This document shows positions 1 to 19,339 of a DNA stretch of 64,000 bases, piece by piece (positions within the stretch are counted from its first letter, which is position 1; each line of letters opens with the position of its first letter). A program made the position numbers and the translations under genes. This DNA comes from Sphagnum compactum. Its lineage: Eukaryota. The stretch is taken from the NCBI GenBank assembly GCA_965153455.1, contig OZ234493.1, positions 3,720,001 through 3,784,000 on the forward strand. Reading direction: 5' to 3'. Under the pieces are notes generated by a model. The model searched no databases. It worked only from the letters and a program-made list of their open reading frames with translations, and had not been told where the DNA came from.

Positions 1-199
1 CTACCAAAATCAGACACCCAAATTGCAGCAAAAGACACAAAATCACATAGTACCAGATTGCAGAAAAAAACACACAGCAGACATAGAGGGAGGGAGCTCG
101 GGGCACAGAGTCAGGTTGAGTCACAAAGCCTGTGGGGGGGAGTCTTTTTAATGTTTGTTAACATTTTACCAGAATTTGTTTGTCTGTTTTGTTGTAGAT

Positions 200-1331
200 C
201 TTGCCTACATGTTTTTATTCTGCTTTAGTTTCATTTGCTAGAATAAACTTCAACTCAATATGGACTAGCAAGGCTCATATAGGACCAGTCAAAAATTTCA
301 CAGATATTGTGCCTTCAATAATGTTGTTACTTTTAGTATCTTTGACATCAAAATGGACCTCAGAAATAATATTTGATGGGGGGGGAGGGGTACATTACAT
401 TTGGTGTGGGGGTCCGTTTGCTAGGTGCCTTATTCTGTTCCTTCATAACTGAAGATGCAACTGGCAGCTCAGAACCTTCTGACTCCTCTGCTTCAGAGTT
501 GTAGTCGCTGCTACATGAAGTGTCGCATTCACTAGATGCTGCTGATGTCGACGACCCTTCCTCTTCCACCACATGACGATGTGGTTTTCCAGCATTCCTA
601 GTGCTCCTCCTCTTGCTTTGGTGTCCAAGTGTTCTCCCATCCACCACCTTTTGGGTGGACTTCTTATTTGTCTTCTTCCTCCCTTGCATGGTTGCTGAGT
701 CCATGAAGTGACGACTGCCAAGTGACCGAGTGTTTCCAAAATACAGCAAAGGAGTAATTAGTTTGGACTAAGACTGTCTCAATAAGCACATGACCACTAA
801 CTAGCATACAAACCTAATTTTAAGCTATGCATGTAGTAAATGATCACCAGGAACCCTATTTCATGGTAGCACCGAACACATCGATTTCAAACCCTAAACC
901 CTAACCCCATGAAAAATTAGAATAGATTGGAATTTGGAGAGTAGCTACAATCTAACACTAGAACAAAGATTATTGAAGCGTGTTCAAACTATTTGCGTAT
1001 ACACAAAACTCACGCACGTAGTCGGACTTCCAAACTTTTTCATACAGTGCAGGCAATGGAGATTGCACGATCCACTACTGAATTCTGTATGGTCCTCTCC
1101 ATTTATGCATGTGAAAACAAGTCTAAGAAGAACTCACAATTCTTGTGCGCTTCCTTCAACTTCTGCAAGTCGTTGTTTGAGTTGAGCAACGCGCTTGTTA
1201 CGTGCTAAAATGTAGGGGTTTAGCGTTGTTTCTTCGGGATCAGTATCCACCGTTCCTGAATCGTGACCCACTGTACCATCAGCATCACTGATGACTGCAT
1301 TTTCGTCACGCTCCATCTGTACCTTACTCAA
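200..1331 (-). pseudogene. Decayed spliced ORF of unknown function, possibly the second (TnpA-like) ORF of the CACTA element
   Basis: Minus-strand ORF pieces 1331-1134 (…NPYILARNKRVAQLKQRLAEV, followed by a GTGAGT donor) and 749-360 (basic then Ser/acidic tract) with stops. It runs divergently from the transposase. No diagnostic domain recognised. Confidence 0.3.
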
Positions 1332-2499
1332 ACAACTAGCCTTATGTTGGTCTTGCCTTAGAAATGCTAATTGTTATGGTATGCCACAAGCCTCCCCAAT
1401 GCTTCTACTCTTCCAAGTCTAGAAAAATTGGTTTTCTTAGAAAGCCTGACAACCTTTGCAGTTTGAACTTGAACATGTTGAGCCCACACACAAGCATTTA
1501 GTAGCTGCAAATTCCCCAGTGTAGTACAAACCCTCATTTATTATGGGGTACCTTTTAGAAAGTTACAACCAGTTTTATTTCTTTACAAGGGTGTGAATAG
1601 GAGCCTAACAAGGAGCATGTTTTGCACATTAGGCTGATACTTCTGATTTTTCAGTCTGTAAAGTTCATGCAGTTTGTAGCAGTTTGTAGTTCATCAGTAT
1701 ATGAAATGTGTGAGTTTAGAGCTAGTTCAAAAATCAATACTTGGCAAATAAATTGGAGAAACAGACCGGTTCCGACAAATGACAAGGATGATTTCAAAGA
1801 GCAGTAGTAGCCACCCACCCATGGTGAAAGTTTCTTTCATCTTCCCTTTCAAATTTTGTTTCCCTGCATTATACTCTTGCACCTGCACATCTTCAAATGC
1901 AATCCTTTGAAAGTTTCTGCAAGAAAGTGCATATGCGCATAACACTTCATCATGATATGTGCATGTGATGTTCCGGTTTGCTCAGCTCTACATACTGTTT
2001 TCAAAACATGAGCTCCTGATGGTCACATTTTCTTGTTTGCAGTTTTCAATATCTGAGCTCCTGATGGTCACATCCTTCTTTGCTACATTATGGCATCTTG
2101 TTGCACAAAGAATTGCATTAGCAGTTCAACCTTTGTGTCAACTCAAATTTTGATTGTATGGTCCTCAGTGAAGAGTAATATTGATTGTACAAAAAGGAGC
2201 TTCTGTGTACAGGTTGACAGACACTATGTGAATGACATTTTCACAGCAAGCTTGAATTACTCATCAGAGAGAAAGCAAGAGAGAAGTCTTATGAGCTGGT
2301 CTATGGCAAAGCAGAAGATGTCCTTTGACTTTGTTCTGAAATTTGTTTGGAAGTTCTGCTTCACAATATGTTCCACTGAAGTCTCTTGGTACAGCAAACT
2401 TTCCCAAATCCTTATTCCCATCTCTTTCTCTGCCTTTCTCCACCATGGTAGCTTCCGTAAGCTTGGAGATTGTTTGGTTATATGAGAGAGGCTACTACT

Positions 2500-16213: not shown

Positions 16214-16458
16214 GGAATAGAGGGAAGGAAGTGTGACTATGGACAGTGTGAAACCGCCGAGAACTCCCCGAAAGGCAGGGTTTGTTTCTCCAAGAGCTTC
16301 TTCTTCTTCGTAGCTGTCTCTTCCTCCCAGTTGTCGTAGTTGTGGCTCTCCTGCTCCTGCTGCTACTGTTGTTGTATGGACGCATTGAGATTTGCAGCTT
16401 CGTTTTTGCTGCTGCACCTGAGACTTGAAGGACTTGAAGTTGTTACTACTGTTTCCAT

Positions 16459-18707
16459 ATGGCCTCCAAGACAATTCCGAAGAGTTGAAAGATCTTCGAA
16501 AGGACCCGCCTACATCATGCAGAGCCGGGTGCTCATCCTCCTTCCTTTTACCCCCGTCGTCCCAATCTCTCGCCACTATTTTTGTCGTTCTGAAAGTATT
16601 ACTTTTCCTGTGTGTAATCTTTTGTCTTGATAGTTGAAGAAATGGTCGTATCTGATCACCTCGTGACTGCGTGATATGGCTGTGAGTTTGTGACTGTGTA
16701 GAGAATGGCTTTTGAAAGGTGCTGCATTCTCTAGGGTGTAGTTGGTTCAAAATCCGTATGTGTCTTTTGGTCTCTTCTGTATTCAGTCATTTGTGACTGT
16801 GCTTTAGGCAGCAGTTATCATGGCACATCATCAACCAAGCTTGTTTTGTTAGGGTTTAGTTCACAATGCTTATGTATTTGTGGTCTGTTCTTTCTTCTTT
16901 GTTTTGTCATTTGTGCTTTGAGCAGCCATCACGGAGCATCATCAACCAAGCTTTGTTTCAGGATGCTTGATGAGGACAGCATTATGCTCTCCTTTGACCC
17001 TTGCTAAACAGGTCTTTCATGTTCTAGTACTGGTTTTTTTCTTCTTCTCTATATTCTGGTTATATCCGTAATGATCTCTTAGTAGAACAACACCTTAACT
17101 TAATACATTTGTCCTCCTTCATGCATGCACACAAAAAGAATGTCAGGGTCTTCTAAGAGCATCCTGTGTGAGTGCTTTTGCATTCATTGCTAATTGTGGC
17201 TTTTGGTCCTTTGGGCAGAAATGACTAGTCTAGTGTTTCAGTCAGTCTCTGTTTTTCATACCATTGCTCTCAAGAAGTTCTGTGAAATTGATGTTTCCTT
17301 GATGGTTGTGGGGGGTGTGACAGGTCCTGTGGCAAAAGATATGTTCCATTGGCAAGCAACAATCATGGGTCCACCTGATAGTCCCTATGTTGGAGGTGTA
17401 TTTTTGGTTATGATTCATTTTCCTCCAGACTACCCCTTCAAGCCCCCCAAGGTTTGTCCTTCAATCTAGAGATGGAAATGTTTGTTAATACTCTTCCCCC
17501 AGACTACCCCTCCATGCTTCATAAGGGTTGTCCTTTAATCTACAGATGGAAATGTCTGTTAATACTCTTCTCTCAGACTACCTCTCCATGACCCATGAGT
17601 TGTCTCCTGTAATCTAGAGATGGAAAATGTCACCACATACTCTTGTCAGTGTCTAGTGAATGGGTACAATGAACCACATGTCCAAAACAGATGGAAGGGA
17701 TCTGACTTAACCACATATCTGTGAAATTGCAGAGAATTTCCCACAACAGTCAGTTGAAGGCAACATGACAATGTGTGCAGTCATAACATTATGAGAGTGG
17801 GTAGGTGCTACGGGAAATTGTATAAGGTTTGAGGCTGAAGGACTTCCAGGTGGCCCATTTTAGGTCACTATTCCATGTGAAGTCCATATGACCAAGTTGT
17901 TACCCACAGAGATGTATCATTTTGTTCTTGGTTCCTTGGAACTGCGCAGGTTGCATTTAGAACGAAGGTGTTTCATCCTAATATCAATAGCAATGGGAGT
18001 ATTTGCTTGGATCTCCTCAAAGAGCACTGACAATTTCTAAGGTTCTTTGCTCATCCTCATCCATGTCGATGTGCATTTTAGATGGTTGTTAGTATTCAAT
18101 CCCCAACCACGTTTAAATAGGTGTATCAATAGTGAGCATTGCTGGTCACTGGTGTGTTTCCAGAGTTGTTATTCCAAGATTTGTACCTGGAGTGTCCCTA
18201 TGCAATTTTGAATAGGGTTTCTTCCAGTTTTTTAATGTAGGAGTAAGTACTTTGTTATGGGATTGTTGGAACTTGGATGGATCAACAGGAATATTGGACT
18301 TCATGTTCCTTATGGGCTCTCTAATGTGTTCGGAAAGCCCTGTTCTGGATCTGTGCTGGTTAGTCGGCACATTTCAATTCAAGTGCATATATCTGAAATA
18401 CTTTTCTCTTACCACTTAACATGCAAATTTGGTATGAACTTTGTGCTTAACCCTGAACCTTGTATTCTAATCCTATTTTTTCTGATTAACCTGGACCTCT
18501 AAAGTTTTGCTTGGTTTTGATGGTTGAGATGTGGAAATTAACAAGTCTTGATATGTGGGGCAGGTCTTGCTCTCAATATGCTCGTTGTTGACTGACCCCA
18601 ATCCTGACGATCCACTGGTACCCGAAATCGCTCACATGTACAAGACTGACAGGGCCAAATATGAAGCCACAGCACGGAATTGGAGCCAGAAGTATGCCAT
18701 GGGTTAA
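16459..18707 (+). pseudogene. UBC: Ubiquitin-conjugating enzyme E2 (UBC8/9/10, Ubc4/5 class), full 4-exon copy, frameshifted
   Basis: Exons about 16459-16527 (MASK…ELKDLRKDPPTSC, 1-nt deletion), 17324-17451 ([22 protein letters not shown]…[11 protein letters not shown]), 17950-18041 ([25 protein letters not shown], 13-nt deletion across QWSPA) and 18564-18707 ([47 protein letters not shown]). Confidence 0.92.
17426..17645 (+). repeat. Three degenerate tandem copies (about 72-76 bp) spanning the UBC exon 2/intron 2 junction
   Basis: cagactacc…aatcta(g/c)agatggaaa…tactctt repeated at about 17426, 17498 and 17573. Confidence 0.8.
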
Positions 18708-19339
18708 ACATTCTGTAGTTGGCTGTAATAACATTTGTGAGCAAGAAATTATGTATTGAGTGAAGTTAGGGTTCAGATAAAGCTTCTTATTCTGAGATAT
18801 TCTTTGGGTAACCCTTTCCAGGGTTTGCATATTGTCTGGTTATGGTTGTTAAGGGGGACAATAGCATGTGTTTTCATGTCTGGTTTCTGATGTGTGCTTT
18901 AGTCACATGTCTACCCATCAGGACTATCAGGGCTGACTTTGGAACCAACTCATGCATTACATGGACTATGTGCCATGAGACCCTCACTTGTACTGGATAA
19001 TTGTTGGAATAAAATAGATTATTTCCACATGTCAAACCCACATATTGTAATCTTGAGGGGATTAATTGGACCTTCTTGTTGAATACACATATACATTGTT
19101 TTGCTTCATCAAGTGATAAACTATTGTAAGTAAAATTGATATCTTCAGTTGTAAATTGTCTTCTAAATGTTTGTGGAGCAAGCTACTAAAAGTTGGGGAT
19201 AGATACATTATTTTAGGTGTGGCAAAATAGATTAGGTTATTTTTCACCTATATCCTAAACCTTATCAATGGGATTGTCATTTGTAGGCAACCCTAATCCT
19301 AAACATGCCTAAAAAAAATGTGTACCTAGCTTACCAAAA

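Follow-up and report, generated by a model that had tools for sequence, protein, structure and literature searches.

Does the left part of this stretch hold a single transposon that gathered pieces of host genes while keeping its own transposase, or a CACTA relic lying among decayed gene fragments? The stretch, hereafter the window, is a 64,000-nt segment of Sphagnum compactum contig OZ234493.1 (positions 3,720,001 to 3,784,000, assembly GCA_965153455.1), in which host genes have a G+C content of ∼42–45% and spacers are AT-rich. An earlier note, made from the letters alone, had described positions 1–19030 as a CACTA element that retained its transposase while serially acquiring genomic DNA. 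We find that the following part is quite probably a fossil copy of a Sphagnum CACTA (En/Spm-type) element, whose family gained host DNA internally and multiplied with it:

5510–19575, plus strand: part of the CACTA element common to other family copies (blastn map of 63 loci)

The proposal of a large gene-capturing CACTA that keeps its transposase gene in a moss is supported in part, with cargo in the 3′ region, in an intron and in the 5′ region.

The family was assembled by scanning metagenome contigs with the Transposase_21 exon, which yielded 145 candidate stretches and 63 confirmed relative loci (designated L). These loci were mapped onto the window with blastn, and the loci were also mapped onto one another. 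Identity between copies was determined from 15 sequences compared over window positions 7450–8600. Part of the segment 6001–16000 was present in 20 of the 24 public runs listed, and at least half of the sampled words in 14 of the 24; the runs containing it came from 13 studies, moss metagenomes among them.

The transposase gene was delimited by Pfam, homologue alignment and a splice model, as follows:

7442–13551, plus strand: CACTA transposase gene (exon 1, 7442–9250; exon 2, 11654–∼12553; exon 3, ∼12799–13551)
7388–8449, plus strand: Transpos_assoc (Pfam)
8450–9316, plus strand: Transposase_21 (Pfam)
11633–12607, plus strand: DUF4218 (Pfam)
12568–13551, plus strand: DUF4216 (Pfam)
8447–8449, plus strand: TAG nonsense codon, the sole internal stop of the transposase model

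A tnp2 (Transposase_21) core with an E value of 5.5e-69 is accompanied by Transpos_assoc (1.2e-5), DUF4218 (4.5e-33) and DUF4216 (8.8e-13), which identifies the gene as a CACTA (En/Spm, DTC) transposase. Colinear alignment with five full-length plant CACTA transposases (968–1132 aa) was obtained over 7448–9250, 11657–12553 and 12799–13548, and the first alignment gap costs no residues (from 623 to 625 in P0033 and from 520 to 520 in P0091). Splicing from 9251 (GTGAGC donor) to the CTGCAG acceptor that precedes 11654 would remove intron 1 and leave an in-frame coding sequence of ∼1150–1180 codons. The description of the transposase as near-intact therefore stands, with one internal stop (TAG at 8447) in the three-exon model; of the 21 closer copies aligned, 20 have CAG or CAC at this position, and L002 has the TAG as well. 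The sequence that interrupts the gene sits in an intron, outside the coding sequence. The earlier claim that cargo interrupts the gene was thus correct in that a block derived from an RRM-like gene lies within the gene bounds, and mistaken in that this block occupies an intron and leaves the coding sequence uncut.

Whether any host DNA lies inside the element depends on where the element ends, and on the right side this could be established:

18899–19575, plus strand: 3′ subterminal region and right terminus, ending TAGTG, with GTTGCA repeats; its reverse complement reads CACTACTAGAAATTCTG…
19576–19578, no strand: GAA, which may be the right-hand repeat of a 3-bp target site duplication (TSD), the window copy having one end only

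The right end at 19575 reads …TTTCTAGTAGTG, and the opposite strand CACTACTAGAAATTCTGTCATATGCAACC. GTTGCA occurs seven times in the last 375 nt (19201–19575), compared with 0.2 expected (Poisson 9e-10); such a cluster is a CACTA subterminal repeat, and matching TGCAAC motifs are found at the left ends of the family. Each end of a 133-bp element in L009 carries the 17-nt terminus, as does, with 1–3 mismatches, each end of a 2.4-kb element in L022; the two are bordered by TAT/TAT and AAA/AAA, respectively, and a 3-bp TSD can thus be read for two small elements with termini of the family type. L043/L044, in a nested insertion, and L017, at its end, likewise have the family terminus. At 12890–13040, 1.1 kb downstream of its right end, L017 carries the left end of a further family element; this end is degenerate, has TGCAAC repeats and is mutated in its terminal bases. 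The extent to 19030 given in the earlier note must accordingly be revised to a true CACTA right end at 19575, and because of that terminus the RHM and UBC sequences described below lie between the transposase gene and the element's own end. This placement inside the element is what is new here.

The DNA between the transposase stop and the subterminal region comprises the following:

13570–18898, plus strand: 3′ cargo block, reaching from the transposase stop to the 3′ subterminal region
13570–15086, no strand: part of the 3′ cargo without family assignment; its segment 14028–14600 recurs in L050, and it has a low plus-strand RNA signal
15460–16250, plus strand: N-terminal fragment of RHM (UDP-rhamnose synthase type), ∼250 codons from ∼15460 to at least 16213
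17290–18707, plus strand: UBC E2 (UbcH5-type) gene copy with introns (exons ∼17323–17451, 17950–∼18045 and 18563–18707)
17405–17626, plus strand: 74 nt triplicated in tandem, comprising the end of UBC exon 2 and its donor, also in L006, L008 and L036

The RHM piece is present as had been claimed (Pfam E 2e-40), its N-terminal codons broken by a frameshift found in all four copies and by a stop at 16054 private to the window. The UBC copy is not the whole E2 gene that had been supposed: exon 1 could not be recognised, exon 3 lacks 13 nt (a deletion private to the window, L008 being intact there), and the exon-2 donor is triplicated. The UBC exons match profile positions 20–64 and 97–139 with the third exon between them, and the introns are kept, with GT..AG bounds at 17452/17949. 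No Pfam match was found for 13570–15101 in six frames, and a PDB search with the three plus-strand frames gave a single match at chance level (E 0.008).

RHM and UBC are carried in the same order, at 90–93% identity, by L006, L008 and L036, that is, by three of the four same-family loci extending beyond the transposase stop; window 15087/15815–18900 is common to these three. The fourth, L017, is free of this cargo and joins 13569 to ∼18899–18936 with 92 nt between. No match to 13570–18898 was present in any of the eight more distant family loci that extend beyond the transposase stop. Because the same RHM frameshift and the same 74-nt UBC triplication occur in all four copies, RHM–UBC would have been taken up once. 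The introns retained in the UBC piece, and the intron sequence in the RRM-like piece, point to genomic DNA as the source of the capture. Three subfamily-B copies have ∼2.3 kb of additional sequence between the UBC block and the 3′ subterminal region (12472–14798 in L008; 15557–17880 in L036), which is absent from the window.

Two further blocks of cargo lie upstream of the transposase and within it:

5643–6807, minus strand: Block 1, a 1.17-kb subfamily-A insert with an acidic open reading frame (ORF) at 5974–6759, 262 codons
9304–11494, minus strand: Block 2 (2.19 kb), inserted into intron 1 of the transposase gene and comprising the intron-containing 3′ half of a Sphagnum RRM-like gene

The acidic exon of the earlier note corresponds to the 262-codon ORF at 5974–6759(−), which has one stop, common to all six copies, and for which neither Pfam nor the Atlas yielded a relative. 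L002, L003, L039 and L054 have Block 1; L004, L008, L010 and L025 have ∼36 nt in its place. The coding block of unstated origin that had been listed among the cargo is real and could now be identified as Block 2, whose minus strand encodes the C-terminal half of an RRM-like protein in exons at ∼11088–11500, 10844–11143 and 9304–9420. It matches a Sphagnum balticum protein; proteins P0137–P0139 are 85–87% identical to it. Ten loci have Block 2, while L004, L006, L007, L008, L035 and L036 have 20–23 nt instead, a short form also found in one DNA run and one RNA run; the site in L017 and L027 holds other filler. A 1022-nt RNA contig is 94% identical to window 10921–11491. In L001, L003 and L061–L063 a second copy of 10881–11343 follows directly after 9413, followed by a repeat of 9335–9413, an arrangement absent from the window; an RNA contig shows the same 9413/10881–11343 duplication joint as the subfamily-A copies. 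The mapped coordinates bear out the strands read earlier, with the identified cargo left of and inside the transposase on the minus strand and RHM and UBC on the plus strand.

At least 13 distinct copies, 90.9–97.0% alike over 7450–8600, make up the family; among the 15 sequences compared only L004 and L007 represent the same locus. Identity to the window in the transposase is 97.0% for L039, 96.9% for L060 and 96.3% for L054. The copies are truncated on the 5′ side at different points (L006 at window 7054, L036 at 8605 and L039 at L054:4887), and the flanks past the terminus differ between the window and L017. The expectation that copies would carry common or nested cargo sets was confirmed, RHM–UBC recurring in three other loci, Block 1 in four and Block 2 in ten. 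Three sets were seen (none; RHM–UBC; RHM–UBC with Blocks 1 and 2), and they look nested, consistent with stepwise acquisition in an order that the tree leaves unfixed. The largest set belongs to one subfamily, of which the window copy is a member. The captured RHM, UBC, RRM-like and Block 1 pieces sit between element parts common to the family and recur in other copies; both termini were seen in no copy.

A segmental or whole-genome duplication of a CACTA relic beside RHM and UBC pseudogenes could also produce shared cargo. Mosses have undergone ancient genome duplications, and the lack of any cargo-bearing copy with both termini and a TSD fits this explanation. Nevertheless, we regard it as improbable, since the cargo has the transposase stop on one side and, on the other, the 3′ subterminal region and terminus that are the family's own, L017 joins the same two element parts without cargo, the flanks past the terminus differ between the window and L017, and at least 13 distinct copies have different truncations and flanks.

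The anatomy of the insertions suggests how host DNA may have entered the element. Acquisition would have taken place at three internal sites: between the transposase stop and the 3′ subterminal repeats (an RHM 5′ fragment, a UBC copy and more DNA), in transposase intron 1 (the 3′ half of the RRM-like gene, in antisense) and in the 5′ region (the acidic ORF). At the breakpoints, which are sharp, a few to a few dozen bases are replaced, and no TSD accompanies the acquired DNA. These features would fit the copying of filler DNA into the element by double-strand-break or gap repair, rather than nested transposon insertion. RHM–UBC would then have spread by cut-and-paste after its single uptake, transposition being suggested by the differing flanks and truncations.

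Several observations weigh against reading 5510–19575 as a gene-capturing, mobile element. The window contains no left CACTA terminus (CACTACTAGAAATT-type), no TGCAAC-rich left subterminal region and no terminal inverted pair. The check proposed in the earlier note, for CACT(A/G) terminal inverted repeats (TIRs) with a 3-bp TSD, recovered within the window the right terminus at 19575 and no left TIR; among 19 × 33 CACT(A/G)/(C/T)AGTG pairs none was convincing (the best had 15/20 matches and no TSD), and no long inverted repeats were found in the window. Both termini with a TSD were seen for no cargo-bearing copy, L006 and L036 have no recognisable 3′ terminus, and the sequence of L008 ends short of it. 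The maximum-likelihood tree, in which L017 and L027 form a supported pair and the within-family root has support of 81/88, allows the cargo-free state of L017 to be either ancestral or a deletion. Copying by repair is inferred from breakpoint anatomy only. Lastly, the metagenome loci may mix several Sphagnum species, so that some “copies” could be orthologues; one metagenome does supply five subfamily-A loci that differ from one another by 4–5%.

The copies of cargo and transposase are decaying neutrally. Non-synonymous and synonymous differences between the window and L008 stand at 23:5 for RHM, 5:1 for UBC exon 2 and 26:11 for transposase exon 2. Wherever the transposase of other copies is covered at length, it has stops or is broken into pieces, and the family is dead in what can be seen. 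Domestication of the transposase as a host gene, with unrelated pseudogenes adjoining it, would account for the near-open reading frame and for a low sense-strand RNA signal over the transposase (depth 1–4), yet seems to us scarcely credible given the nonsense codon at 8447, the neutral substitution pattern (26:11), a multi-copy family in which all other copies are broken, and the element's own CACTA terminus.

Of the poly-A RNA reads from a related organism, 1353/2192 fit only in part and about half are 90–95% alike. Reads over RHM and UBC cease to match at 15455, 16213, 17948, 18011 and 18026 and then run on into unlike sequence, and 185 spliced reads (17449→17948) could not be assigned to the window locus. 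Paralogues, presumably the parent genes, appear to be the source of most of these reads. RHM, UBC and the RRM-like gene each have expressed relatives that continue past the fragment, and a full DNA-PKcs is found in a liverwort. No chimeric transcript was seen in the public RNA reads. The view of the element as an exon-shuffling vehicle was not sustained, as neither a chimeric transcript nor exon shuffling was seen and every copy seen is decayed.

How far the element reaches to the left is less clear. The first 5.5 kb of the window contain the following:

1–5509, minus strand: left mosaic of two exons of a function-unassigned Sphagnum gene, a GH3 exon and DNA-PKcs pieces
390–713 and 1137–1316, minus strand: two Sphagnum gene exons, 94% and 85% identical to a Sphagnum jensenii protein, without Pfam family
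2616–2867, minus strand: single exon of a GH3 beta-glucan exohydrolase (PDB phmmer: barley ExoI residues 314–379, E 1.2e-13)
4485–4727 and 4140–4232 (span 4140–4727), minus strand: N-terminal fragment of DNA-PKcs in two pieces (Riccia protein residues 153–234 and 242–272)

The GH3 and DNA-PKcs pieces named in the earlier note are both real. That of GH3 matches barley ExoI, and no second GH3 exon was found in read-through frames of 1–5600 and 1–7400. DNA-PKcs was recognised by a search of all protein representatives, in which the two segments aligned to a Riccia sorocarpa protein of 4062 aa (E 1.1e-12) with the full DNA-PKcs Pfam architecture and name; Pfam itself (135 ORFs, and read-through frames of 1–7400) matched neither DNA-PKcs nor GH3, and the DNA-PKcs ORF had no PDB match. 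A rearranged insert of 251 nt separates the two DNA-PKcs pieces; an RNA contig and protein P0124 show the insert-free form. At the far left, the ORF 363–767(−) is 94% identical to the S. jensenii protein, and the exons at 390–713/1137–1316 have minus-strand RNA signal, including three spliced reads (712 to 1138). Hits to named proteins, this one and that of S. balticum, assign the window to Sphagnum. Residues 221–311 of the S. jensenii gene model (P0121) match many unrelated loci at 50–80% (L001, L006, L027, L028, L040, L042, L048 and L056–L058), and this model probably runs into another repeat at its C-terminal part. Short telomere-like CCCTAA(A) runs occur at 890–908 and 5440–5464. A joint from 909 to 5373/5464 in one DNA run was rejected as an artefact of the CCCTAA-like repeats on both sides, its shorter side being only 21 nt.

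Membership of these pieces in the element is a separate matter: they have neither a left TIR nor a TSD to enclose them and recur in only one other copy. The odds are about even that the left 5.5 kb are 5′ cargo of an element exceeding 19.6 kb or DNA beside a 5′-truncated copy. According to the first of these possibilities, to which we give slightly less than an even chance, the whole of 1–19575 and more is one CACTA of >19.6 kb with its left TIR just past the left edge, and GH3, DNA-PKcs and the function-unassigned gene are its cargo. The left region is indeed a mosaic of single exons of unrelated genes, unlike an ordinary flank, and L054 repeats it (window 1283–5512) at 95.5% identity, yet is no closer to the window in the transposase (96.3%) than are L039 (97.0%) and L060 (96.9%). 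ORFs of the DNA-PKcs piece occur in public data in several variant forms that are 79–96% identical. Long 5′ regions exist, as in the related family of L051 and L053, where left-end-like sequence lies ∼7.6 kb upstream of the transposase. Also in its favour, an exon-sized relative of the Sphagnum gene exons (50% protein identity) lies in L049, 6.4 kb upstream of a different (68%) CACTA transposase in the same relative orientation; tblastx shows only ∼80 aa in common, which counts against it, and the match was rejected as a conserved CACTA gene. Read depth in one DNA run points the same way, at 22–26 at the flanking positions 19689/19805 compared with 106–302 at the listed positions within 116–18768, with the caution that depth is not copy number, a use of contig depth that we rejected. 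The window's lack of a left terminus argues against a single element, as does the presence of the left region in only one of the 63 loci.

Under the second possibility, likewise a little short of even, the CACTA copy is 5′-truncated near 5510 and the left mosaic is another gene-fragment element, or old rearranged host DNA, abutting it. Homology across the family begins at window 5510 (L054:4593), the left terminus was not found, and the truncations of L006 (7054), L036 (8605) and L039 (L054:4887) indicate that 5′ truncation is common in the family. L054 bears on both possibilities. In it, window 1283–5512 is followed by 711 nt lacking in the window and then by 5510–8650; because of these extra 711 nt, the window junction at 5510 is a deletion. 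The subfamily-B copies L004, L008 and L043/L044 leave L054 inside the 711-nt stretch and have in common ∼2 kb of other sequence left of that divergence, and L039 diverges at a third point (L054:4887), all of which speaks against one continuous element. No Pfam match was found in the 9 kb upstream of a subfamily-B transposase (L044). Conversely, L054 has both mosaic and element at similar divergence, and a truncated copy would need orthology or segmental duplication to explain this.

Beyond the element, three other coding regions were noted in the window:

30180–36392, plus strand: host gene of the XB3/XBAT31-type RING finger kind (Pfam E 1.6e-12, under the curated cut-off), with an ankyrin-like N-terminal exon
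55240–62000, plus strand: gene for a phage-type (T7-like) organellar RNA polymerase (RPOL_N 55240–56076; RNA_pol 59118–59570)
44338–45984, minus strand: open frame of 548 codons with Ser, Gln and His runs, without Pfam family

To our knowledge, nearly all that has been established on the capture of genes by DNA transposons concerns flowering plants. The literature searched yielded no account of CACTA gene capture in a bryophyte, and for Sphagnum only a one-line repeat census, in which CACTAs constitute 6.8% of the genomes and are the most abundant classified repeat (PMC9946827). Among the closest published counterparts are the Jozin-type elements of Chenopodium, complete CACTAs that bear a transposase and have captured fragments of genes (Belyayev et al. 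2022, PMC8978399). The host fragments there are in non-coding parts, notably 5′ of ORF1, with other additions lengthening the element, and in this the Sphagnum copy is similar. Unlike them, it has cargo also in the 3′ region and in the transposase intron, a near-full-length, intron-bearing gene copy, at least four pieces in one element and a moss host.

Non-autonomy is part of the definition of Pack-TYPE elements, which are usually short (Gisby and Catoni 2022, PMC8903248), and a model of tandem insertion and aberrant excision has been proposed for them. Like Pack-CACTA (Catoni et al. 2019, PMC6379663; PMC8903248), the Sphagnum family involves chromosomal DNA mobilised by a CACTA, mosaics of unrelated genes and copies with common cargo; unlike Pack-CACTA and other Pack-TYPE elements, as these are defined in the review cited, it has a transposase gene of ∼1160 codons and so falls outside their non-autonomous class (PMC8903248). 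It works like Pack-CACTA yet is no member of that group. On wheat chromosome 3B, 140 CACTA capture events have been reported (Daron et al. 2014, PMC4290129); both there and in soybean Tgm-Express1 (Zabala and Vodkin 2007, PMC1947982), genes or fragments are carried, mostly as pseudogenes, and the same captured gene occurs in several family copies, as here. Those hosts are angiosperms, and some captured wheat genes are expressed and under purifying selection (PMC4290129), whereas the Sphagnum cargo is neutral and no chimeric transcript was seen. The system is thus not undescribed, as the earlier note had suggested, since transposase-bearing, gene-capturing CACTAs are in print for Chenopodium (PMC8978399) and CACTA capture for wheat 3B (PMC4290129).

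A bolder view would make this lineage a transposase-bearing ‘Pack’ element that copies genomic DNA repeatedly into at least three internal hot spots, its own intron included; with the left 5.5 kb counted as cargo, the unit would exceed 19.6 kb and hold at least seven host pieces, and members with an intact transposase might still move somewhere in Sphagnum genomes and give rise to chimeric transcripts. We hold this to be unlikely; were it true, CACTAs would be a main source of gene-fragment shuffling in peat mosses. Knowledge of how CACTAs work is unchanged by the Sphagnum case. In practical terms, such elements introduce false gene models into annotations of Sphagnum and attract RNA-seq reads that cross-map, as happened with RHM and UBC. 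The fossil copy at 5510–19575 would mean that a bryophyte CACTA family shows the same gene-capture behaviour and keeps its transposase gene, with one acquisition in that gene's own intron.

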